Shown here piece by piece: positions 2,262 to 17,499 of a stretch of DNA of 64,000 bases (positions are counted from its first letter, which is position 1; each line of letters begins with the position of its first letter). Below the pieces are notes generated by a model. It did no database searches. It had not been told where the DNA came from and worked only from the letters and a program-made list of their open reading frames with translations. The DNA is from an uncultured Clostridia bacterium (GTDB lineage: Bacteria; Bacillota; Limnochordia; Darwinibacteriales; Darwinibacteriaceae), in contig FIZK01000006.1 of NCBI GenBank assembly GCA_900018335.1, forward strand, positions 5,576 to 69,575, written 5' to 3'. Position numbers and translations under genes: made by a program.

Positions 2262-4382
2262 GTGGAATTACTGGCACCGGCGGGATCGTTTGCAGCTCTG
2301 CGTGCAGCTGTGGAAAACGGTGCAGATGCAGTATATTTGGGCGGCAAGATGTACAGTGCCCGGGCTTCTGCGGCCAACTTCAGTTCAGAGGAGCTGCAAG
2401 CTGCCCTGGATTACTGTCACATTCGCGGTGTCAAGGTCTACGTATCAGTGAACACTCTGCTGCGTGACGACGAGCTTGATGGCGCTTTGATGTACCTTGC
2501 GGATCTGTACCGCTGGGGGGCGGACGCAGTCATTGTCCAAGACCTGGGCCTAATCAAGAGGGCGCGCCAGGAACTTCCGGAATTGGAGCTGCACGGCAGT
2601 ACTCAGATGACCCTGCACAGCACCGGGGATGTCCAAGCAGCGGAAGATCTGGGCCTTAAGAGGGTTGTCCTCGCCCGTGAACTGGGCCTGGCCGCCATTG
2701 GGGAAATCAAAGCACACACCGCCCTGGAGTTGGAGGTCTTCGTCCACGGCGCCCTCTGCATCTGCTATTCGGGACAGTGTTTGATGAGCAGCCTGATCGG
2801 TGGACGCAGCGGCAACCGCGGCCGCTGCGCTCAGCCCTGCCGCCAGCCCTACCAGATGCTGGGGCTGGATGTGCCTGGACCGTATGTGCTCTCACCGCGG
2901 GATCTTTGCCTCATCCAACACCTGGATGGGCTGCGTCAGGCCGGTGCCGCTTCCCTGAAAATCGAGGGGCGTCTGAAAAGTCCGGATTATGTGGGGGTTG
3001 TGGTGCGCACATATCGGGCAGCTTTGGATGGCCAGCCCTATGAACCCCAGGAACTGAGCTCCGTGTTCAATCGGGGATTTACCACCGCCCATATTAGCGA
3101 TCAGCCGCCAACAGATCTCATAACTTATCTGCCGCCCGCCAGGGAAGAACGCACGGGAAGTGCCCGGGATACATACAGCTCACCCCGGGCCGTGCGGCGC
3201 GTGCGGGCCCATCTCTGGGCTAGACTGCGCCAGGGAGATAGCCTCGAATTGACCCTTGTTGACGAAGACGGGGTGCATGCCCAAGCGCGAGGCAGCATCG
3301 CCGCGGAACCGGCCAAGGGCAGTGGGATCAGCCCAGAGCTGCTCAGGGAGAAGCTGCTGAGGTTGGGCAACGATCCCCTGGAAATCGTGGAGTTCGAAGT
3401 AGAGTTGGAGCAGGGTGTACACCTGCCCGTAAGCGAGCTGAACAGGACCAGGCGCGAGCTGGTGACCCAGTGGGAGAAGCAGCGCTTAGCCGGCTACAAA
3501 CAGCGCGACCTCCCTCCCGGGAGCTCCGCCGTGCCCCTTCCGCCCAAGGCCAAGATGGGTGGTGTGCAAATCGCGGTCACCGTCTCTGATGTGGCTAGTA
3601 CGGAAGCGGCGGTGAAGGCTGGGGCCCACCTGATCTACTTCTCCGGCCAGGTTTACCGCAAGACGCCCCTGGACTGGCTGGCGGAGCTGACGCAGGCCTG
3701 GGAGATAGGCAGGCGCGCGGGAGTGCCGGTGTTCGTTCACCTGGAACGGATCACTGAAAACCACATGTTCCCAGAAATCGAGCGCGCTTTGCTGAGGCAC
3801 AGTTTCGACGGTGTGCTCCTGGGGAACTTCGGGACCTGGCGGCGAGTGAAAACCATGTTTCCCGACATTCCCGTGCACGCGGATTGGTCTTTTAACGTGT
3901 TTAACTCCTGGGCTGTCCAGCACCTGGCAGAGGAAGGAGCCGCTTTGATCACAGCTTCACTGGAGCTTAAGTTGAGTGATATTAAGGCAATCTGCGGGCG
4001 CTCTCCGCTGGATGTTGGTGTTGTGGCTCACGGGCCTTTGGAATCCATGGTCAGCAAGCACTGCTGGTTCAGGGATCAAGGGTGCCGCCTGCAGTGTCAG
4101 AGCCAAACAGTTCAGCTCAAAGATGAGAAGGGTTTTGTGTTTCCCGTTAGATTCGACCGCTGGTGCCGGATGCATATCTTCAATTCTCGGGAGCTTTCCC
4201 TTTTGAATCATCTAGAGCGACTTAAGGACAGTGGAATCAGTTTGTTGAGGGTTGAGGGGCGCACCAAGGATCCTAATTGGATCGGCCAGGTGGTAACGGC
4301 GTACAAACGAAGGCTTGCCGGGGAAGAAGTGCATCTGGCAGGAGAATTCACGAAGGGCCACTATTTTCGTGGTGTGCTGTAA
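2262..4382 (+). CDS. peptidase U32 family protein, long two-domain form (706 aa)
   Basis: N-terminal U32 TIM-barrel signature (LLAPAGS...GADAVYLG, Cys-rich CICYSGQC...CAQPC). A second, degenerate barrel and C-terminal extension follow. Confidence 0.75.
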   Translation: MELLAPAGSFAALRAAVENGADAVYLGGKMYSARASAANFSSEELQAALDYCHIRGVKVYVSVNTLLRDDELDGALMYLADLYRWGADAVIVQDLGLIKRARQELPELELHGSTQMTLHSTGDVQAAEDLGLKRVVLARELGLAAIGEIKAHTALELEVFVHGALCICYSGQCLMSSLIGGRSGNRGRCAQPCRQPYQMLGLDVPGPYVLSPRDLCLIQHLDGLRQAGAASLKIEGRLKSPDYVGVVVRTYRAALDGQPYEPQELSSVFNRGFTTAHISDQPPTDLITYLPPAREERTGSARDTYSSPRAVRRVRAHLWARLRQGDSLELTLVDEDGVHAQARGSIAAEPAKGSGISPELLREKLLRLGNDPLEIVEFEVELEQGVHLPVSELNRTRRELVTQWEKQRLAGYKQRDLPPGSSAVPLPPKAKMGGVQIAVTVSDVASTEAAVKAGAHLIYFSGQVYRKTPLDWLAELTQAWEIGRRAGVPVFVHLERITENHMFPEIERALLRHSFDGVLLGNFGTWRRVKTMFPDIPVHADWSFNVFNSWAVQHLAEEGAALITASLELKLSDIKAICGRSPLDVGVVAHGPLESMVSKHCWFRDQGCRLQCQSQTVQLKDEKGFVFPVRFDRWCRMHIFNSRELSLLNHLERLKDSGISLLRVEGRTKDPNWIGQVVTAYKRRLAGEEVHLAGEFTKGHYFRGVL

Positions 4383-4396
4383 GGTGGTGTGGCTAG

Positions 4397-6742
4397 ATGA
4401 ACGAGAAAAGTTTACGAGTGTTGGAATGGCCCAAGGTGCGGAAACTGGTGGCTGATCGTGCCAGTTTTTCCCTGAGCCGTGAGATGCTTAACGAACTTAT
4501 GCCCAAGACCGATTTGCACCAAGTGATGATGGATCTCTCCTTAACCACCGAAGGGGTACGCCTTTTGTGGAAGCACGGCGAGCCTCCCTTCGGAGGAGCA
4601 AGCGATATCAGGGCGGCGGTGGGGAGGGCCCGTTTGAGCGGCACTTTGGATCCCCAGCAGCTGCTGGCGGTGGCGGACTTTTTGTACTGCACTGCTCAGC
4701 TGAAGAAGTACCTGGAGGATGAAGAAGGGCCGCTGGCTGAGTTTCGCCAGGGGCTCGTTCCCTTGCAGGGGCTGCGGGAGGAGATTGAGCGCTGCCTAGA
4801 CCACGATGGAACGGTGCGGGATTGGGCATCCCCTGAGCTGGGGAGAATCCGCAGCAAGATGCGGACTCTGGCCAATAGGCTCAAGGACCGCCTAGAGAGT
4901 CTTATCCATTCCGCCTCCATGCAGAAGATTTTGCAGGAATCCATTATTACCGTGCGCAATGGCCGCTATGTGGTGCCTGTGAAAAGCGAGTACCGCGGCA
5001 AGTTCCAGGGCATCGTCCACGATCAATCGGGCAGCGGCGCCACGTTATTTATGGAACCGGCTTTTGCCGTGGAGTTGAACAACCAGCTCAGTTTGGCTGC
5101 CCAGGAAGAACAGGCTGAAGTGGAGCGGATCCTAAAGCGTCTAAGCGCGTCCGTGGGAGAGCATGCGCAGGAACTCTTGGGTAACTTGCAGGTCGTGACA
5201 GAATTGGATTGCATCTTTGCCAGGGCGCGCTACAGCCGCGCCATTGACGGTGTGGAGCCAGTAATCAACGGCGAAGGCAGGATTCACATTAAGCAGGGCA
5301 GGCATCCTCTACTCACCGGGAACGTGGTGCCCATTGACATTTGGCTGGGTGAGGATTTCCATGTTCTGGTCATCACCGGGCCGAATACGGGGGGCAAGAC
5401 GGTCACCCTGAAAACGGTGGGCTTGTTCTGCCTCATGGCCCAGGCGGGCCTGCATATCCCGGCAGCCCCAGGCTCCACACTGCCGGTGTTTCAAGGCATC
5501 TACGCGGATATCGGCGACGAGCAGAGCATTGAGCAGAGCCTCAGCACCTTCTCTTCCCACATGAGTACCATCGTGCAGATCCTCAGCGAGCTGCAAGAGG
5601 ATTCCCTGGTGCTGTTGGATGAACTGGGAGCAGGCACCGACCCCACTGAGGGGGCCGCCTTGGCCACGGCCATTTTGGATCATCTGCGCAGCCGCGGGAT
5701 CCACACGGTGGCCACCACCCATTATTCAGAGCTGAAAACCTACGCTTACAGTAATGATGGTGTGGAAAATGCCAGCGTGGAATTTGATTTGCAGACCCTG
5801 AAGCCCACTTACCGTTTGGCCATCGGCATTCCTGGCAAGAGTAATGCCTTTGCCATCTCCAGGCGGCTGGGGCTTGATCAGGAGATCGTGGACAGGGGCC
5901 AGGCCTTGCTGTCTTCCCATCACGTGCGGGTGGAAGATCTCATTGGGGAGATGGAGAGCAGCCGCCGCCAAGCTGAGCAGGACCGCTTGATCGCGGAGTC
6001 CATGCGCCGGGAACAGGAGGAGCTGAAAGCCGAGTACGAGAGGAAACTCCAGGCACTGACAGAGCGTCGGGAGGAGATGTTGGAGCAGGCCCGCCGGGAG
6101 GCGCTGGCGCTGCTGGAAGAGACCCACAGTGAGCTTAACCAGATCTTGGGAGCAGCCAGGCGCATGGGCAAGGACGAACTGGAAACGAGCGTGAAGGAGT
6201 ACCGCGAGCGCATTAAGACGCGCAGCGCCGAACTGCGCGCCCAAAGCCGGGAGCAGCCTAAGGTCCAGGGCCCCCAAGACCTCAAGCGCGGCGAGGCAGT
6301 GCGCATTAAGAGTCTCAGGCAGTCAGGCTTTGTTCTGGAGCCTCCCGGCCCAGACGAAGAGGTTCAGGTACAGGTTGGGATCATGAAAATCACTGTGCCG
6401 CTGGGGGATCTAGAGCGCGTGGAAACCTCCCCAGCGCGGGAACGCCGGGCAGGGGGTACAGTCCGCTCCCATTTGGCCAAGAGCGCCCAGATCCGCAGCG
6501 AACTGGACCTAAGGGGCAAAACGGTGGAGGAAGGACTGGCCTTAGTTGATAAGTACTTAGACGACGCCTTTCTGTCTTCCGTGGGCAGGGTGCGTTTGAT
6601 CCACGGCAAGGGGACCGGTGCCTTGGGCGAGGCCATTCAGGGCTATTTGGCCGGCCATCCCCACGTCAAGGGCTTTCGCTATGCCGACCCCAATCAGGGC
6701 GGGCGGGGCGTTACCGTAGTGGACATCCATCCACCCAACTGA
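4397..6742 (+). CDS. mutS2: endonuclease MutS2 (MutS domain plus C-terminal Smr)
   Basis: 781 aa with Walker A GPNTGGKT, a MutS ATPase core and a C-terminal Smr domain (LDLRGKTVEEGL...RLIHGKGTG). Confidence 0.9.
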   Translation: MNEKSLRVLEWPKVRKLVADRASFSLSREMLNELMPKTDLHQVMMDLSLTTEGVRLLWKHGEPPFGGASDIRAAVGRARLSGTLDPQQLLAVADFLYCTAQLKKYLEDEEGPLAEFRQGLVPLQGLREEIERCLDHDGTVRDWASPELGRIRSKMRTLANRLKDRLESLIHSASMQKILQESIITVRNGRYVVPVKSEYRGKFQGIVHDQSGSGATLFMEPAFAVELNNQLSLAAQEEQAEVERILKRLSASVGEHAQELLGNLQVVTELDCIFARARYSRAIDGVEPVINGEGRIHIKQGRHPLLTGNVVPIDIWLGEDFHVLVITGPNTGGKTVTLKTVGLFCLMAQAGLHIPAAPGSTLPVFQGIYADIGDEQSIEQSLSTFSSHMSTIVQILSELQEDSLVLLDELGAGTDPTEGAALATAILDHLRSRGIHTVATTHYSELKTYAYSNDGVENASVEFDLQTLKPTYRLAIGIPGKSNAFAISRRLGLDQEIVDRGQALLSSHHVRVEDLIGEMESSRRQAEQDRLIAESMRREQEELKAEYERKLQALTERREEMLEQARREALALLEETHSELNQILGAARRMGKDELETSVKEYRERIKTRSAELRAQSREQPKVQGPQDLKRGEAVRIKSLRQSGFVLEPPGPDEEVQVQVGIMKITVPLGDLERVETSPARERRAGGTVRSHLAKSAQIRSELDLRGKTVEEGLALVDKYLDDAFLSSVGRVRLIHGKGTGALGEAIQGYLAGHPHVKGFRYADPNQGGRGVTVVDIHPPN

Positions 6743-10439: not shown

Positions 10440-11108
10440 GGCGATGATTTGGCTCAGTACAAAGGGGCCGTAGAGCTGGCTGTGCTGCCGCAGGAAATCA
10501 AGGAAAAACCGCACTAGGGAATGGATGAACAGCGTGCGGAAAAAGGCGTAACCGTGATACTTGGGTTTGGCGGCCCATCTCCAGGCAAAGGGCAGGATGA
10601 CCAGGGCCGCGGCTACTTCATAGAGCTGAGTGGGGTGTACAGGGCCCAGGCTGGCGGGGAATTCCACACCCCAGGGCAGATCGGCGGGCGGCCCGTATAG
10701 CTCGCCGTTGAGGAAGTTGCCCAGCCGGATGAAGATGTGGCCCACGGGCAGAATGGGTGCCCCCACATCCGCCAGCTGCCAGTAACGCAGCTTGTGCCGG
10801 CGCACATAGAAGATGCCGATCACCATAATGGTGATGATGGCCCCCTGCGAAGACATGCCGCCCCGGGAGAAGATCTCCACCGGATTCTCCAGGAAATAAC
10901 GCCAATTGGGCAAGACCGCCCCTAGACGGCTGCCCACAAGCCCAGAAAAAGCGCAGAGGAAGTACAGGTTTTCCACCAGCTGCCAGTCCAGGCCATGCAG
11001 TTTGCTGAAGTGACGGGCTATGTAATAGGCCGAGATAAAGGTGCAGGCCATCAGGATTCCATACCAATAAATGTCCAGTGAACCGATACTGAATGCTATT
11101 GGAGCCAC
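10374..11108 (-). CDS. lgt: prolipoprotein diacylglyceryl transferase
   Basis: Lgt signature (YWYGILMA...GNFLNGELYG...HPTQLYE). The ORF extends to a TTG at 11159, but GTG at 11108 with a GAGGTGG Shine-Dalgarno matches the Bacillus Lgt N-terminus (PIAF...). Confidence 0.8.
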   Translation of the reverse strand: MAPIAFSIGSLDIYWYGILMACTFISAYYIARHFSKLHGLDWQLVENLYFLCAFSGLVGSRLGAVLPNWRYFLENPVEIFSRGGMSSQGAIITIMVIGIFYVRRHKLRYWQLADVGAPILPVGHIFIRLGNFLNGELYGPPADLPWGVEFPASLGPVHPTQLYEVAAALVILPFAWRWAAKPKYHGYAFFRTLFIHSLVRFFLDFLRQHSQLYGPFVLSQIIALAICLVTLPIIIILDRRQQIS

Positions 11109-11186
11109 AGCGACCACCTCGCGAACTCTGATAGAGGCATATTCAACTCCCGTATCCAAAAACCTGCTCCCATGGGAGGATTAGAC

Positions 11187-12260
11187 ATGAAGAGAATTGT
11201 GTTAACCGGAGGCGGAACCGCGGGGCACGTTACGCCGAACCTAGCCCTAGTTCCTCGCCTGCAGTCAAAAGGATGGGAAATCCATTACATTGGCACCCAC
11301 GACGGCATTGAAAGGGAACTGATCGGCTCTGAGCTGCCCTATTACCCCATCAGCGCGGGGAAACTCAGGCGCTACTTCGACTTGAAGAACCTGAGCGATC
11401 CCCTGCGGGTTGTCAAGGGGATCTTTGATGCCTATGGCCATCTCAGGCGCATTAAGCCCGCCGTTGTGTTCAGTAAAGGGGGCTTCGTGGCGGTCCCCGT
11501 AACCTTGGCAGCCTGGCTTCTGCGTATCCCAGTCATCCTGCATGAGTCTGATCTGACTCCTGGCTTGGCCAACAAGCTGTGCGTGCCGTTTGCCAAAGTA
11601 CTGTGTGTAAACTTTCCAGATTCGGTTCAGTACCTGAAGGGTAAGGCCTCTGAAAAGGTAGTGGTGACGGGCACGCCCATTCGGGCCGAGCTGTTGGAGG
11701 GATCCCGGGAGCAGGGGTTGAAGATTTGCGGGTTTTCCAGCGGACTTCCCGTCCTTTTAGTCATGGGAGGTAGTTTAGGATCTGCGGTTTTGAACCAGAC
11801 TATAAGGGATAACCTGGCTGAACTGACCAGAAGCTATCAGATTGTCCATCTCTGCGGCACTGGCAATCTGGCCCCCGAGATCAACAACCACCGCTATTTC
11901 CAATTGGAATATGCCCGGGAGGAGCTGCCCCATCTGCTGGCGGCGGCAGATATGGTGCTGTCCAGGGCAGGAGCTAATGCCATCGTTGAGCTGGCCGCCC
12001 TAGCTAAGCCCAACATCCTGGTTCCCCTTTCAAGGCAGGCCAGCCGGGGAGATCAGATTCTCAATGCTGCTTCCTTCGCCCGCCAGGGATTCAGTCTGGT
12101 CATCCAGGAAGAGGACCTAAGCGGCCGGACTTTGATTGAGCACCTGGCTTTGCTGCAGAAGGAACGGCGCAGGTTCGTTGAGGCCATGCAAGGATCGCCC
12201 ATCAACGATGGGACTGGCAAGATCATGGCCCTCATTGAGGAAGCGGCCCGGCGAAAATAG
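11187..12260 (+). CDS. murG: undecaprenyldiphospho-muramoylpentapeptide beta-N-acetylglucosaminyltransferase (MurG, GT28)
   Basis: GGGTAGHVTPNLAL N-terminal G-loop and a C-terminal DQILNA motif typical of MurG. ATG 11187 follows a GGGAGGA Shine-Dalgarno. The gene lies outside the dcw cluster. Confidence 0.75.
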   Translation: MKRIVLTGGGTAGHVTPNLALVPRLQSKGWEIHYIGTHDGIERELIGSELPYYPISAGKLRRYFDLKNLSDPLRVVKGIFDAYGHLRRIKPAVVFSKGGFVAVPVTLAAWLLRIPVILHESDLTPGLANKLCVPFAKVLCVNFPDSVQYLKGKASEKVVVTGTPIRAELLEGSREQGLKICGFSSGLPVLLVMGGSLGSAVLNQTIRDNLAELTRSYQIVHLCGTGNLAPEINNHRYFQLEYAREELPHLLAAADMVLSRAGANAIVELAALAKPNILVPLSRQASRGDQILNAASFARQGFSLVIQEEDLSGRTLIEHLALLQKERRRFVEAMQGSPINDGTGKIMALIEEAARRK

Positions 12261-12320
12261 TTGCGGGCGCAAGCAAATTATGGTAAGATGGAAACACATC
12301 AGAAGATGGGAGTGACTCTC

Positions 12321-12932
12321 ATGTCCATTAAGCTTGCCGTGATCTATTACAGTTCCACTGGGACCAACTACCAACTGGCCCAATGGGCCAAAGAGGGTGC
12401 AGAGGAACTTGGTGCGGAAGTAAGAGTGCTCAAAGTGCCGGAGCTCGCTCCTCAAGCTGCTATTGATTCTAATCCCGCTTGGAAAGCGCATCACGATGCT
12501 ACCCAAAATATACCCGAAGTCTCCCTGGCCGATCTAGAATGGGCTGACGCCATCATCTTTAGCGTGCCCACCCGTTTTGGCAACATGGCTGCCCAGATGC
12601 GCCAATTCCTAGATACCACCGGTGGTTTGTGGTTCCGTGGCAAACTAGTGAACAAAGTGGTCAGCGCCATGACCTCTGCCCAGAACCCCCATGGAGGCCA
12701 AGAGGCCACCATCCTATCGCTCTACACCACCATGTACCATTGGGGTGCCATTGTGGTGGCGCCGGGCTATACTGACCAGTCCGTATATGTGGGCGGGGGC
12801 AACCCTTACGGTACCAGCGTTACGGTGGATCAGGAAGGAAAAATGGTGGAAGACGTGGAAGGTGCGGTGAAACACCAGGCTAGACGTACCATCACGGTGG
12901 CCAAGTGGCTTAAGCAGGGTAGAGGAGAATAG
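12321..12932 (+). CDS. wrbA: NAD(P)H:quinone oxidoreductase, WrbA-type flavodoxin-like protein
   Basis: MSIKLAVIYYSSTGTNYQLA flavodoxin-like N-terminus and WrbA conservation. ATG 12321 with GGGAG Shine-Dalgarno; the ORF caller's 12261 start is an upstream extension. Confidence 0.75.
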   Translation: MSIKLAVIYYSSTGTNYQLAQWAKEGAEELGAEVRVLKVPELAPQAAIDSNPAWKAHHDATQNIPEVSLADLEWADAIIFSVPTRFGNMAAQMRQFLDTTGGLWFRGKLVNKVVSAMTSAQNPHGGQEATILSLYTTMYHWGAIVVAPGYTDQSVYVGGGNPYGTSVTVDQEGKMVEDVEGAVKHQARRTITVAKWLKQGRGE

Positions 12933-12947
12933 TTCGAAGTAGACAGT

Positions 12948-12976
12948 GAAAAAGGGCAGGGTAACCTGCCCTTTGC
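12948..12976. terminator. bidirectional terminator between convergent wrbA and the SOR gene
   Basis: AAAGGGCAGG-gtaa-CCTGCCCTTT perfect hairpin. Confidence 0.6.
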
Positions 12977-12980
12977 GCAT

Positions 12981-13370
12981 TTACTCAACTGTAATAGCTT
13001 TGGAGCTCTCCCACAGCCCGTGGATATTGCAGTAGCTTAGTGCCAGAAGGGTGCCGCTCTCCTTGAGCCGCACTGTGACCGCCGCGGAGGGTTCAGTGTA
13101 GCAGGGTCCTTCAGCTGGCCCCTTCAAACCTTCGCCGTGGGCGGCAAACTGGACATCGGCCAGTTCGAACGTGAACCCTTCGTTGGGTTGGAAAAGCAGC
13201 TTGATCCAGCGAATGTGGTGTTCGGCGGTGTTGGGATGCGGTATCTCTTCTCCGATGCTTATCTTTATGTCCACGGGTTGGCCTGCCGCCACAGTGTCTG
13301 GAGCCTCAATGACCGGCACGTGTTTTTCGCTTTTCCAATCTCCACTGCGCAGTACATCACCGAGTTTCAT
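12981..13370 (-). CDS. superoxide reductase (1Fe-SOR, neelaredoxin/desulfoferrodoxin ferrous-iron domain)
   Basis: 129 aa with the EKHVPV motif, His ligands and C-terminal CNIHGLWE (Cys ligand). GGGAGGT Shine-Dalgarno upstream of the ATG. Confidence 0.8.
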   Translation of the reverse strand: MKLGDVLRSGDWKSEKHVPVIEAPDTVAAGQPVDIKISIGEEIPHPNTAEHHIRWIKLLFQPNEGFTFELADVQFAAHGEGLKGPAEGPCYTEPSAAVTVRLKESGTLLALSYCNIHGLWESSKAITVE

Positions 13371-13489
13371 AATCTACCTCCCTGCAGTATTATATTTCAA
13401 CTCATACTTCTCGAAATGGCTGATTTCTCCTGCGCAGTTTGCAGTCATAAACGCGAATCAGCGGAGCATGCTACTAGGGAGGTGAGTCT

Positions 13490-13660
13490 ATGCCCATATG
13501 TCCGTTTTGCAACCAACCCATGGAACGGGTAACCCCCGATGAGCAGGAGGCCTTCGCTGACTTGTTCCGCTGTGGGGCGTGCCAGGTGGAGCAGGCAGTT
13601 TATTGGGATACCGGTGAAAGGCTTTTGGCGTGGGATTATGATCCAAGTGATGAAATCTGA
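13490..13660 (+). CDS. small zinc-ribbon protein (56 aa, CxxC...CxxC); absent from the supplied ORF track
   Basis: ATG at 13490 preceded by a strong Shine-Dalgarno (GGGAGGTGA, 5-nt spacer). Translation: MPICPFCNQPMERVTPDEQEAFADLFRCGACQVEQAVYWDTGERLLAWDYDPSDEI. It ends 23 nt before the PrsW-like gene. Confidence 0.5.
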   Translation: MPICPFCNQPMERVTPDEQEAFADLFRCGACQVEQAVYWDTGERLLAWDYDPSDEI

Positions 13661-13683
13661 GCGGTGGATTCGTTGGTGCAGTA

Positions 13684-14328
13684 TTGGCGTCACTGATTCC
13701 GGGTCTGTTTTGGTTGTGGTATTTTAGGCGGTACGACGTTGGAGACAAGGAGCCTGCAGCAAGGCTGGTCCAGTGTCTCTTGTTTGGCGCACTGGCGGTC
13801 ATCCCCGCCTTGAGCTGGGAAGCGCCCTATCGGGATCTGCTGCAAGGCTCCAATTCTCTTCCCGTGCAGTTGGCGCTATCCTTTCTCGTTGTGGGCCTGG
13901 GCGAAGAGTTCTTCAAGCTCTTGGCCGTGTATCTGGCCGTAGGGCGGGCGGAGGAATTCAGCGAACCCATGGACGGTATTCTCTATGCCATTGCAGGCGG
14001 GATTGGTTTTTCGGTAGTGGAAAATGTCCTGTATATCTTGGCATTTGGGCTGGCGGCTGCGCCCCTGCGGGGCACAGCTGCCTCTTTGGCTCACATTGCC
14101 TTTTCGGGTCTGGCCGGGTATTACCTGGGCAGAGCCCGCTTCGGAACGAAACCGTTGCGCACTGCCGCCACGGGGTTGGCGGTGGCCGCCGGGGCCCACG
14201 GCCTTTACGATTTCCTGCTCATAACCCAAACGGTGTCTCCCCCAGTCGTGGTCCTGCTCATTGCCGGCCTGCAGTACTTGCTCTTTGCAGCCATCGGCAG
14301 GGCGGTCAGACTGCCGTCCCAGAGGTAA
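13684..14328 (+). CDS. PrsW-family intramembrane metalloprotease
   Basis: Multi-TM protein with a GLGEEFFK motif, GFSVVEN and HIAFSG motifs typical of the PrsW protease family. TTG start, so the start is uncertain. Confidence 0.6.
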   Translation: MASLIPGLFWLWYFRRYDVGDKEPAARLVQCLLFGALAVIPALSWEAPYRDLLQGSNSLPVQLALSFLVVGLGEEFFKLLAVYLAVGRAEEFSEPMDGILYAIAGGIGFSVVENVLYILAFGLAAAPLRGTAASLAHIAFSGLAGYYLGRARFGTKPLRTAATGLAVAAGAHGLYDFLLITQTVSPPVVVLLIAGLQYLLFAAIGRAVRLPSQR

Positions 14329-14383
14329 TTCTTGTCTGGGGTGGGTAGCTGTGCTACAATAGGGGAGGAAAGGAAGTGACACT

Positions 14384-15109
14384 ATGGCAGGCCATTCCAA
14401 GTGGGCCAACATCAAGCATAAAAAGGCCAAGGAAGATGCTAAGCGCGGGCAGATCTTTACCAAGTTGGGCAGGAAGATCACGGTAGCGGCTAAGGAGGGA
14501 GGGCCCGATCCCACCTCCAATGTGCGTCTGCGTTTGGCCATCGAAGAAGCCCGCTCGTTCAATATGCCCAATGATAACATCGAAAGGGCCATCCAGCGGG
14601 CCGTGGGGGGCCTGGAAGGTGTGACCTATTCAGAGGTCCTCTATGAAGGCTACGGCCCCAATGGTGTTGCCATTATGCTGCAGGCATTGACGGATAATCG
14701 CAATCGCACCGCGGGGGAAGTGCGCCATCGCTTTTCCAAGTACGGTGGAAACCTCGGTGAGAGCGGCTGCGTGGCTTGGATGTTTGAGCGCCGGGGCGTT
14801 TTGGTTGTGGAGCGCGGTGAAAACGTGGACGAGGATGAGGTCATGCTGCAGGCTTTGGACGCCGGCGCTGAAGACGTTGTGGCGGAAGGCGATGTTATTG
14901 AGATCCACACCGATCCCAGTGAGTTCATCCGCATTAAGGAGGAGTTGGAGGGTCACGGACTAACCTTCCTCGGAGCTGAGATCAGCTTCATTCCCCAGAA
15001 CACGGTTCAGATCGATCAGGAACAGGCAGAGAAGGTGGAGAAGCTTATCGAGCTTTTGGAGGAGCTGGACGAAGTACAAGAGGTATACGCCAACTACGAA
15101 GTGCAGTAA
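14384..15109 (+). CDS. yebC: YebC/PmpR family DNA-binding transcriptional regulator
   Basis: MAGHSKWANIKHKKAKEDAKRG canonical YebC N-terminus; 241 aa. Confidence 0.9.
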   Translation: MAGHSKWANIKHKKAKEDAKRGQIFTKLGRKITVAAKEGGPDPTSNVRLRLAIEEARSFNMPNDNIERAIQRAVGGLEGVTYSEVLYEGYGPNGVAIMLQALTDNRNRTAGEVRHRFSKYGGNLGESGCVAWMFERRGVLVVERGENVDEDEVMLQALDAGAEDVVAEGDVIEIHTDPSEFIRIKEELEGHGLTFLGAEISFIPQNTVQIDQEQAEKVEKLIELLEELDEVQEVYANYEVQ

Positions 15110-15166
15110 TTATTAGGGAATATTTTCTAAGCCCGGGGGCATACTTCTTCCCAAGGAGGGGGATGT

Positions 15167-15274
15167 ATGCGCAGGGCGGTGCTGTTGGTGGTGCTGGCAG
15201 TGGTCTTTTTTATCTTGGGCTTTCTGCTGTCCCGAAGGCTTTTTCCCTTGGTAGTGGCTGTTCTGGCAGCCTAG
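15167..15274 (+). CDS. putative small hydrophobic membrane peptide (35 aa); not in the ORF track
   Basis: AAGGAGGGGG Shine-Dalgarno 5 nt upstream of the ATG. Translation MRRAVLLVVLAVVFFILGFLLSRRLFPLVVAVLAA is a single TM helix. An intrinsic terminator follows immediately. Confidence 0.3.
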   Translation: MRRAVLLVVLAVVFFILGFLLSRRLFPLVVAVLAA

Positions 15275-15282
15275 CGAAGAGC

Positions 15283-15315
15283 AACCTCGGCCGCAAGGCT
15301 TGAGGTTCTTTTTTG
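15283..15315 (+). terminator. rho-independent terminator downstream of yebC and the small ORF
   Basis: AACCTC(GGCCGCAAGGCTT)GAGGTT hairpin followed by CTTTTTTG. Confidence 0.55.
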
Positions 15316-15377
15316 CGTGAAGCTGGGCAAGGACTTGCCGAGCTCCATGTCGAATAGAAGGGGCGGGGTGTGATGCG

Positions 15378-15869
15378 GTGATCATATTGGGAGTTGACCC
15401 CGGCATCGCCATTACCGGTTTTGGGGTGGTGCGGGTAGAACACAACCGCCATATTGCTCTGGGCTATGGTGCCATCCGCACCCCGGCCAAGGAGACAACT
15501 GCCCGGCGCTTGGAGGCTATCTACCGCGAGCTTACTCAGCTCATAACGGAGTTTAGGCCCGACTGTTTTGCCATCGAGGAGCTGTTCTTCAATAAGAATT
15601 CCGCCACGGCGCTGATTGTGGGACAAGCTAGGGGAGTTGCCATTTTAGCAGGTTCCCATGCTGGCCTGCCCGTCTTTGAGTACACGCCGCTGCAGGTGAA
15701 GACAGCGGTCACAGGTTATGGGCGCGCCGGCAAACAGCAGGTAGCTTATATGGTGCGTATGCTTTTGGGGCTGGAGAGTACTCCAGAGCCCGATGACGTG
15801 ACGGACGCCCTGGCTGTCTGCATCTGTCACGGCTTTAACGCCAACAATTGGGGGAGGCGAGGGGAATGA
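15378..15869 (+). CDS. ruvC: crossover junction endodeoxyribonuclease RuvC
   Basis: MIILGVDPGIAITGFGVV RuvC N-terminus; GTG start; 163 aa. Confidence 0.9.
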   Translation: MIILGVDPGIAITGFGVVRVEHNRHIALGYGAIRTPAKETTARRLEAIYRELTQLITEFRPDCFAIEELFFNKNSATALIVGQARGVAILAGSHAGLPVFEYTPLQVKTAVTGYGRAGKQQVAYMVRMLLGLESTPEPDDVTDALAVCICHGFNANNWGRRGE

Positions 15870-16498
15870 TCATCTCTTTACGGGGCAGGCTTGTGGAGGC
15901 CACTGAGAGCACGGTGATCCTGGAAGTGCAGGGTGTGGGCTTTGAGATCAATGCCTCAAGCTCCGTTTTGCGCTCTCTGCCTCCTTTCGGGCAGGACCTG
16001 CAGGTGTACACCTATCTGCAGGTGCGCGACGATGCACTGGCCCTCTATGGGTTTTCATCGTGGGATGAGCGGCGGCTCTTTGAGCGATTGATTGGGGTAG
16101 CGGGGATTGGGCCCAAGAGCGGTTTGGCCATCATCTCCAATATAGCGCCTGAGGACTTTATTCGCGCTGTGCAGAGCAAAGACCTCAAGACCCTCACCAA
16201 GCTGCCCGGCGTGGGCAAGAAGACGGGCGAACGGATCCTTTTGGAATTGAAAGACGCCTTCGCCCATGTATCCTTTCCCGACATCGAGGACGGGCATCCG
16301 GCTGTTCCCGAGGATATTCTGGACGATGCGGTGGAAGCCCTCATCGCCCTGGGCTACAGCCTCACTGAGGCTGAGCACATGGTCAACAAGGCACAGCCGC
16401 ATCTTCCAGAGGATTACGATCTCCAGGAGCTGCTGAAGGTGGCCTTGGCGCAGAACAGCCAGCAAAGGGGTGAACGTGTTTGGAGACGGAACGTATAG
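15866..16498 (+). CDS. ruvA: Holliday junction branch migration protein RuvA
   Basis: ATGA overlap with the ruvC stop; [11 protein letters not shown]...; HhH motifs ([19 protein letters not shown]). Confidence 0.9.
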
Positions 16499-17499
16499 TC
16501 AGTGCTTGGAAAAGGCCCGATGATTGGGACGTGGAGAAGTCCCTGCGGCCCAGGACCTTGGCTGAGTACATAGGGCAGGACAAGGTGAAAGAGCATTTGC
16601 GCATCTTTATCGCCGCAGCAAAGCAGCGCGGCGAGGCACTGGATCATGTTCTGCTTTACGGCCCCCCGGGCTTGGGAAAGACCAGTCTGGCCCATATCAT
16701 CGCCGCGGAGATGGGAGTAGGCATTCACACTACTTCAGGCCCCGCCATTGAGCGTCAAGGGGATTTGGTGGCCATCCTAACCAGCGTTCAAGCCAAGGAT
16801 GTACTGTTTATCGATGAGATACACCGCCTCAACCGGCAGGTGGAGGAAGTGCTCTATCCGGCCATGGAGGATGGAGCGGTCGACATTATTATTGGAAAGG
16901 GACCGGGCGCCAGGTCAGTGCGGATTGACCTGCCGCCGTTCACCCTAGTTGGCGCTACTACCAGGGTGGGTATGCTCACCTCGCCCCTGCGCGATCGGTT
17001 CGGCATGATCAGCCGTTTAGAGCTCTACGGTACAGAGGATCTCCAGGCCATCGTGCTCAGGGCGGCCCAGATCCTCAACATCGAGGTTGACGAGGAGGGG
17101 GCGAAGGAGATCGCCAAGCGGTCCCGGGGTACCCCGCGGGTGGCCAACCGCCTGCTGAAGAGGGTGCGGGACTATGCCCAGGTTAGGGCGGATAACCGCA
17201 TTTCCCATGAGGTGGCCCGGGAAGCACTGCGTCTGTTTGAGATCGATGATGATGGTCTTGACCAGATGGACCGCCGCATTCTGTCCACCGTGTACAGGGT
17301 GTTTGGCGGTGGACCGGTGGGAGTGGATAGCTTGAGTGCCGTAATCGGCGAAGAAGCAGCCACCATCGAGGATGTCTACGAGCCTTTCCTTCTGCAGCTG
17401 GGTCTGCTGCAGCGAACCGCTCGGGGACGCTGCCTCACCACATTGGGCTATGAATACCTTGGCGTTCAGCCTCCTGAGGCAGCGGGTGAAGACAGTTGA
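16480..17499 (+). CDS. ruvB: Holliday junction DNA helicase RuvB
   Basis: [12 protein letters not shown]; Walker [12 protein letters not shown]; 339 aa. TTG start overlaps the ruvA 3' end. Confidence 0.9.

Follow-up and report, generated by a model that had tools for sequence, protein, structure and literature searches.

In Bacillus subtilis, the intramembrane protease PrsW cleaves the zinc-binding anti-sigma factor RsiW. To our knowledge, the way in which PrsW-type site-1 proteases stay inactive and are then switched on is unresolved even in Bacillus, and a full-text literature search for PrsW combined with 'zinc ribbon' returned nothing relevant and no dedicated PrsW partner protein. For another intramembrane protease of Bacillus, control by a co-encoded inhibitor is known (spoIVFA-spoIVFB/BofA), and thiol-zinc switches are established in RsrA and Hsp33. 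The present analysis concerns a 64,000-nucleotide stretch of an uncultured Clostridia bacterium (contig FIZK01000006.1, assembly GCA_900018335.1; hereafter the window), in which a gene for a small zinc-ribbon protein, given the working name ZR, stands between a divergently transcribed superoxide reductase (SOR) gene and a gene of the PrsW family (Table 1). ZR is almost certainly a genuine zinc-ribbon protein gene. The comparison of related loci demonstrates in addition an apparently operon-like linkage of ZR with PrsW, which is independent of SOR.

The ZR gene and its product

The initial annotation had read at this place an open reading frame (ORF) of 56 amino acids that opens with an ATG at position 13490 and encodes CPFC, 20 residues and CGAC. 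Translation of the frame confirms each of these points, the spacing between the two motifs being exactly 20 residues, and the ATG is the sole possible start since a TAG lies in frame four codons upstream. The strong Shine-Dalgarno (SD) sequence announced 5 nt from this codon is present as well, except that its spacer (GTCT) counts 4 nt and not 5. The ORF had further been described as unlisted, which holds for the six-frame track only: public gene callers do call the homologues, as illustrated at the NCBI by 'hypothetical protein WBI99_06405 [Limnochordia bacterium]'.

To follow this ORF in other genomes, 80 species-representative loci were fetched by way of the PrsW protein and their six-frame translations were scanned with a hidden Markov model (HMM) of ZR. 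Together with the loci retrieved from ZR itself, they provided 30 distinct ZR ORFs, every one of which (30/30) carries a GGAGG-type SD located 4-9 nt before an ATG, GTG or TTG start. All four cysteines are invariant across these 30 locus sequences. Cys4 and Pro5 are invariant, Cys7 is kept by all 30 locus sequences and, among the 34 database sequences, by at least 90%, and Cys28 and Cys31 are invariant in the alignment of locus sequences as well as in that of database sequences. Two database members are short of cysteines, namely P0005 (C28G, C31F) and P0116 (C7S); they are taken as likely assembly errors or decayed copies, because they come from short ENA contigs. When ZR is compared with its closest relatives, the proportion of non-synonymous differences (pN) is 0.05-0.10 and that of synonymous differences (pS) 0.46-0.75, and the ratio of the corresponding rates (dN/dS) amounts to 0.045-0.078 where dS is unsaturated. 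The differences from the closest relative (L014) are distributed 3/3/25 over the three codon positions, and the variable sites among ten close relatives 20/14/44 of 49. These figures place ZR under strong purifying selection. The conservation of the ORF, judged from synonymous versus non-synonymous change, had been set beforehand as a test able to refute the gene; the low dN/dS and the excess of third-position changes speak clearly for it instead.

A search with the single ZR sequence recovered 10 homologues, and a profile search 45 clusters, all of 35-78 aa, devoid of any Pfam domain and, where named at all, labelled 'hypothetical protein'. Cluster P0001 alone is found on 676 contigs, and an exhaustive HMMER scan with ZR over 1.84 billion representatives produced just 18 hits. 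P0009 and P0010 turned out to be frameshifted gene calls of ZR. Five multi-stretch hits (P0093, P0096, P0097, P0099 and P0101) match positions 15-52 of the ZR profile only, and do so repeatedly (positions 33-51 for P0093); they were rejected as homologues and taken as a YD-repeat-like similarity to the YWDxGERL hairpin. The hosts of ZR are uncultured Limnochordia, including Candidatus Darwinibacter acetoxidans (L032) and Candidatus Wallacebacter cryptica (P0117). Judged from these searches, the family is restricted to one lineage, a Limnochordia clade that comprises Candidatus Darwinibacteriales and their relatives of anaerobic digesters. In such digesters the Candidatus Darwinibacteriales, once called MBA03, and the Limnochordia akin to them are abundant (PMC12663870), so that metatranscriptomic or metaproteomic data covering the expression of ZR probably exist; VTPDEQEAFADLFR is a tryptic peptide of the protein.

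No match above cut-off was obtained for ZR in Pfam or NCBIfam, and it belongs to no described family. The sub-threshold Pfam hits of 29 ZR members all point to zinc ribbons (Lar 14, recombinase ribbon 9, Elf1 8, TFIIB 5). Two AlphaFold2 runs, based on 8 and 34 sequences, both gave a mean predicted local distance difference test (pLDDT) score of 73 and a model with strands at residues 10-14, 23-28 and 34-38, in which both knuckles lie on strands. The features by which a zinc ribbon is recognized, two CxxC knuckles about 15-30 residues apart and a three-stranded antiparallel beta-sheet, are thus found in ZR, the sheet as a prediction. The confidence of the model is low from about residue 40, the pLDDT falling to 52-59 at residues 41-56, in a tail read as disordered, whose length and sequence differ among homologues. 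The conserved core of the family can be written CP[FLV]CNQ.M-x(17-20)-D.[FY].CG.CQ.EQA..W..GER and is followed by this variable acidic tail. A Foldseek comparison of the model with the PDB retrieved Rpb9/TFIIS-type ribbons, the N-terminal ribbon of NrdR, Trm112, Elf1 and the haloarchaeal micro-protein HVO_0758, all with the weak scores that a fold of 40 ordered residues leads one to expect. The best PDB matches obtained with a sequence profile, Trm112 (E=0.06) and LysW (E=0.07), are non-significant. A carrier protein of the LysW type was considered and rejected, since the C-termini of ZR vary (I, V, L, S, G, Q, T, N, E, R and others) and hold no conserved Glu; no lysine or arginine biosynthesis genes were found near ZR in the related loci examined. 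The window protein contains 12 acidic residues and no hydrophobic stretch in its 56 aa, and the isoelectric point (pI) is 4.05-4.6 in 27 of 30 family members. A pI of about 4 argues for the binding of proteins and against that of nucleic acids. The product had been announced as a four-cysteine module, either zinc ribbon or rubredoxin-like. The zinc ribbon is upheld by the AlphaFold2 model and by sub-threshold hits confined to ribbons, and the rubredoxin half of the proposal, for which no match exists, is abandoned. These results lead to the conclusion that ZR is a classical cytoplasmic zinc-ribbon micro-protein (about 50-66 aa) representing a new sequence family, and it presumably binds zinc.

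Association of ZR with the PrsW-family gene

The gene downstream of ZR had been described as PrsW-like, and its score against PF13367 (PrsW-protease), 113.3 bits for a cut-off of 23.5 (E=1.4e-32), lies well above the gathering threshold. The motif residues EExxK (E74, E75, K78), H137 and HxxxD (H172, D176) are invariant in 13 orthologues. Against the NF033739 equivalog, the protein reaches 109 bits, below the cut-off of 225. These profile scores place the gene in the PrsW family, but not among the equivalogs of B. subtilis PrsW.

The genomic context was counted over 49 species-level Bacillota/Limnochordia loci sharing PrsW-YebC(-RuvC), the related loci being searched for six marker proteins only. 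ZR is located directly upstream of PrsW and on the same strand in 26 of these 49 loci; it is decayed in one (L038) and absent in 22. A retrieval starting from ZR itself avoids the bias of fetching loci by PrsW, and it placed ZR immediately upstream of PrsW for 7 of 7 proteins. The pairing of the small ORF with PrsW, whose conservation in relatives had been proposed as a check, is borne out by both counts. In L038, which belongs to a Limnochordia metagenome-assembled genome (MAG), a remnant of ZR that has lost its cysteines can be observed upstream of PrsW (2812-2946, HMM E=0.024). In L023, L026 and L027, ZR is cleanly absent although their PrsW is 67-73% identical. This decay and these absences indicate that ZR was lost repeatedly.

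The divergent neighbour on the other side had been annotated as a 1Fe-SOR, which agrees with a TIGR00332 score above cut-off (98 bits for 61.9) and with a desulfoferrodoxin equivalog (dfx_rbo) score below its own. Most relatives, though not all, have the SOR gene beside PrsW. The pair formed by ZR and PrsW is kept without an adjacent SOR in L029, L032, L036 and L052, and SOR and PrsW are kept without ZR in L023, L026, L027, L043, L044, L047 and L061. This pattern of presence and absence, together with the strand and the coupling described below, ties ZR to PrsW and not to SOR. A gene for a WrbA/flavodoxin-like flavin mononucleotide (FMN) reductase (12261-12932, forward strand; PF03358, PF00258) lies just upstream of the SOR gene and is convergent with it. 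It is present in many relatives, not in all, and its flavoprotein is a plausible electron source for SOR.

The ZR stop codon ends at 13660, and the 23-nt gap that had been reported between the two genes holds when it is counted to the TTG at 13684, the first canonical in-frame start of PrsW. A PrsW protein 99% identical to that of the window (P0011) begins with MVGAVLAS, equivalent to codon 13669, five codons before this TTG. Across the clade, the intercistronic distance varies from about -14 to +60 nt. Most relatives show AGGGGTGAT and then a GTG or TTG located 10-22 nt past the ZR stop, and in others the stop of ZR overlaps the start of PrsW (ATGA in L042, GTGA-type in L035 and L039). As the SD of PrsW usually lies at the ZR stop or just after it, the two cistrons are read as translationally coupled. 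In the sub-clade of the window (the window, L001/L015 and L018), the SD and the start of PrsW are eroded. The interval 2958-3010 of L018 holds no in-frame ATG, GTG or TTG before the conserved first membrane helix of PrsW, only CTG codons. The erosion of these signals suggests that in this sub-clade PrsW probably relies for its translation on the ribosomes that reach the end of ZR, and the arrangement in L018 and at 13654-13686 of the window suggests either a non-canonical initiation or a termination-reinitiation after ZR. A single ZR-PrsW gene interrupted by a frameshift was considered and discarded, since in relatives the two ORFs are separated by an intact stop codon, an SD and a GTG/TTG start, and since none of the 1.84 billion representatives is such a fusion.

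Table 1. Features of the ZR locus and their positions in the window
Feature	Position	Strand	Remarks
1Fe superoxide reductase gene (neelaredoxin-type)	12981..13370	-	divergent neighbour; PF01880 E=1.4e-33
SOR/ZR divergent intergenic region	13371..13476		blocks conserved in an alignment of 15 relatives
Shine-Dalgarno site of ZR	13477..13485	+	GGGAGGTGA; GTCT spacer, 4 nt to the ZR ATG
ZR gene	13490..13660	+	56 aa, ATG start; translation MPICPFCNQPMERVTPDEQEAFADLFRCGACQVEQAVYWDTGERLLAWDYDPSDEI; pI about 4.05
First zinc knuckle, CPFC (Cys4, Cys7)	13499..13510	+	residues 4-7
Second zinc knuckle, CGAC (Cys28, Cys31)	13571..13582	+	residues 28-31; preceded by invariant Asp24
Acidic C-terminal tail of ZR	13607..13657	+	residues 40-56; low confidence; W..GER conserved at its start, end variable
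ZR-PrsW spacer	13661..13683	+	PrsW frame open from 13654; weak GGTG SD-like element only (GGTG-N5-TTG)
PrsW-family glutamic-type intramembrane protease gene	13684..14328	+	214 aa from TTG; true start uncertain
Putative sigma-70-like promoter, TTGTCT-17-TACAAT, extended TG	14332..14360	+	between the prsW stop and yebC; consensus match only

Possible roles of ZR

What stands of the initial annotation is a genuine Cys4 gene leading a PrsW gene, in a pairing conserved among relatives. Of the functions proposed with it, an anti-sigma-like substrate of PrsW and a rubredoxin-like donor for SOR are not supported, whereas a partner of PrsW is still the best reading. The function preferred here, tentatively and at somewhat less than an even chance, is that of a cytoplasmic accessory or regulatory partner of the PrsW-family protease. 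ZR would be the first cistron of a two-gene unit shared with this protease, and the two would be translated in coupled fashion. Its product would act as a protein-binding accessory or regulatory subunit, the zinc ribbon or the acidic tail docking onto the protease, at its cytoplasmic face, or onto its substrate. This docking would control the activity, the stability or the substrate choice of the protease. Such a physical interaction and such a regulatory role are what we infer, because the neighbourhood as a whole is syntenic and the mirror-tree comparison uninformative.

Several observations weigh against a partnership with PrsW. The whole block YunB-Lgt-MurG-WrbA-SOR-ZR-PrsW-YebC-RuvCAB-RecO is syntenic across the clade, which makes adjacency, the main argument for the partnership, weak functional evidence on its own, and the adjacency of PrsW and YebC is as conserved as that of ZR and PrsW. 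PrsW looks unchanged in close relatives devoid of ZR, so that ZR is dispensable, and no PrsW residue was seen to track the presence of ZR in any obvious way. No fused ZR-PrsW protein of the ZR family was found in the 1.84 billion representatives. Finally, the mirror-tree comparison by partial Mantel test gave r=0.12 for ZR and PrsW (p about 0.2), which is non-significant; the value for ZR and SOR is r=-0.07 (p about 0.7).

Part of these observations can also be used in favor of a real zinc-ribbon protein unrelated to PrsW, which could bind another protein of the cytoplasm in the manner of Trm112, LysW or YacG. Its gene would have arisen in, or been inserted into, the stretch between SOR and PrsW, in a clade where gene order is frozen. 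An order of about 10 genes is indeed kept throughout the clade, ZR is lost without visible change in PrsW, the co-evolution signal is not significant, and Trm112 and LysW are the best PDB sequence matches, non-significant as they are. However, ZR was never found away from PrsW in the seven ZR-first look-ups, the geometry of the coupling is tight and conserved, PrsW lacks good initiation signals of its own in the sub-clade of the window, and the C-terminus of ZR is not conserved, unlike the carrier Glu of LysW. This explanation is considered unlikely, while deserving serious attention. A special case of the partnership with PrsW would turn ZR into a redox/zinc switch, in which the oxidation of the Cys4 site on exposure to O2 releases Zn and alters the hold of ZR on PrsW, thereby linking a WrbA/SOR oxidative-stress island to regulated intramembrane proteolysis. 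The invariance of the Cys4 site, the precedent of RsrA and Hsp33, the location of ZR between SOR/WrbA and PrsW and the divergent region with palindromic blocks that it shares with SOR are consistent with such a switch. Its support is nevertheless purely contextual, ZR and PrsW also occur together without SOR, and most zinc ribbons are structural; the switch is accordingly rated as improbable. The same low rating applies to the further proposal that a PrsW-family protease has in ZR a dedicated cytoplasmic regulator, the first of its kind. This would be a thiol-zinc switch that senses oxygen or oxidants in strict anaerobes, gates proteolysis by PrsW and thereby ties the neighbouring WrbA/SOR genes to membrane proteolytic signalling.

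The remaining explanations are less probable still. A rubredoxin-like Fe(Cys)4 carrier feeding the 1Fe-SOR, possibly with electrons from the WrbA-like flavoprotein, would fit a small acidic four-cysteine protein encoded beside an SOR gene and a flavodoxin-like/FMN reductase gene; 22 of the 26 ZR-positive species loci have an adjacent SOR, and the window yielded no rubredoxin gene. Against it, PF00301 gave no hit at E<=1 for the window ZR nor at E<=0.1 for 29 members, and an hhalign comparison with the Clostridium pasteurianum rubredoxin gave a probability of 2%. No rubredoxin figures in either fold-search list for ZR. A rubredoxin identity was rejected on these three grounds, and with ZR and PrsW occurring without SOR, and SOR without ZR, the carrier is a very improbable function. 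That ZR is cleaved by PrsW, or works as an anti-sigma-like factor after the model of RsiW, is hardly credible, although the B. subtilis precedent speaks for it along with a sub-threshold hit of one ZR member to Gin (anti-sigma-G, PF10764; 22 bits for a cut-off of 27). Only this member out of 29 matches Gin, and none of its domains passes; the absence of any hydrophobic, hence transmembrane, segment means that ZR cannot present an extracytoplasmic site-1 cleavage site. The HxxxCxxC signature of the zinc-binding anti-sigma (ZAS) domain is missing as well: no His stands 4 residues before either CxxC, this position being occupied at the second knuckle by the invariant Asp24, and the predicted all-beta structure differs from the helical anti-sigma domain. 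Motif, fold and sub-threshold score being all unfavorable, an identity with a ZAS anti-sigma factor or with Gin was rejected. The raw ORF translations of 11000-17000, which were read by eye and not Pfam-scanned, showed no sigma-factor gene, and none figures among the called genes of the related loci, where only six marker proteins were searched for. It is just as hard to believe that the ORF is a mere leader cistron bringing ribosomes to a weakly initiating prsW, with a peptide of no relevance. The prsW start is certainly TTG, GTG or non-canonical and overlaps or abuts the ZR stop, but the amino acids of ZR are under purifying selection, its four cysteines are invariant, and most relatives possess a good prsW SD.

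ZR is thus, with near certainty, real, and it is conserved; its function is read from context, in hosts that are uncultured. If the partnership with PrsW is true, a protein that is always encoded with a PrsW orthologue, and apparently co-translated with it, provides a concrete candidate for a regulator. ZR would then stand for a new family of bacterial micro-proteins with a common fold, and its locus for a PrsW operon having a dedicated zinc-ribbon protein as first cistron. If the pairing reflects inherited gene order only, ZR would be one more lineage-specific hypothetical micro-protein.

Surrounding features and comparison with known systems

The conserved blocks of the SOR/ZR intergenic region comprise a palindrome of the TTCTAGAA type, ATTTCTCCTGC, GT[CA]ATAAA and, just before the SD, GCACATnCTA. 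The window version of the palindrome is TTCTCGAA, at about 13408-13415. These blocks are possible operator or promoter elements. A scan for consensus promoters yielded weak matches only for a ZR promoter, and a terminator scan no candidate between SOR and yebC; when 12900-15500 was compared with Rfam, no model came close to its gathering score. The promoter-like sequence that follows prsW suggests that yebC can be transcribed separately. Between yebC and ruvC, a second unlisted small ORF (15167-15274, forward strand) encodes 35 aa, MRRAVLLVVLAVVFFILGFLLSRRLFPLVVAVLAA, with one predicted membrane helix. At least 11 related loci conserve it at this place, L011-L013 having there a called gene of 33 aa; in L094 and L096, this interval contains a BofC_C gene instead.

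Among the described systems, PrsW/RsiW/sigma-W of B. subtilis shares with the window the PF13367 domain of the downstream gene and its EExxK and HxxxD residues. It differs in that the window PrsW remains below the equivalog cut-off (109 versus 225 bits), and in that the adjoining ORFs, which were not Pfam-scanned, showed no gene for an extracytoplasmic function (ECF) sigma factor or an anti-sigma factor. RsiW is a membrane-anchored, helical ZAS protein, whereas ZR is predicted to be soluble, with 56 aa, a beta structure and a Cys4 site. The pairs formed by rubredoxin and SOR resemble the locus in that a Cys4 protein, small and acidic, has its gene beside that of a superoxide reductase. ZR is however devoid of the rubredoxin signatures, CxxCG and CPxCG knuckles, and of any corresponding HMM or fold match, it is on the strand opposite to SOR, and its presence or absence follows PrsW and not SOR. 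With spoIVFA-spoIVFB/BofA, the likeness is one of logic only: the gene of an accessory protein lies just upstream of that of an intramembrane protease, in one operon. The protease is there a metalloprotease of the site-2 (S2P) type, its regulators are membrane proteins, unlike the soluble ZR, and there is no homology.

Zinc ribbons are also encountered near distant PrsW paralogues. In the Bacillota MAG loci L090 (2731-3897) and L093 (2734-3906), proteins of 388-390 aa carry a fused N-terminal CPDCG-x10-CPNCG ribbon and an extra membrane helix, and in L092 a Zn_Ribbon_1 protein (3564-4481) is encoded next to PrsW. These fusions and this neighbour are one independent hint of a recurrent association between zinc ribbons and PrsW. 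The fused paralogues resemble the ZR locus by a cytoplasmic Cys4 ribbon accompanying a PrsW domain. They differ by a short CxxC-x10-CxxC ribbon, covalently joined through the extra transmembrane helix and having no sequence relation to ZR, and by a PrsW domain of about 32% identity. The closest resemblance of the ZR protein itself is with Trm112, LysW, HVO_0758, ZifS and the N-terminal ribbon of NrdR, which are like it in size, have two CxxC knuckles on a ribbon of three strands and are in many cases acidic too. Indeed, stand-alone zinc-ribbon micro-proteins that bind a partner are the top structural and profile matches of ZR.

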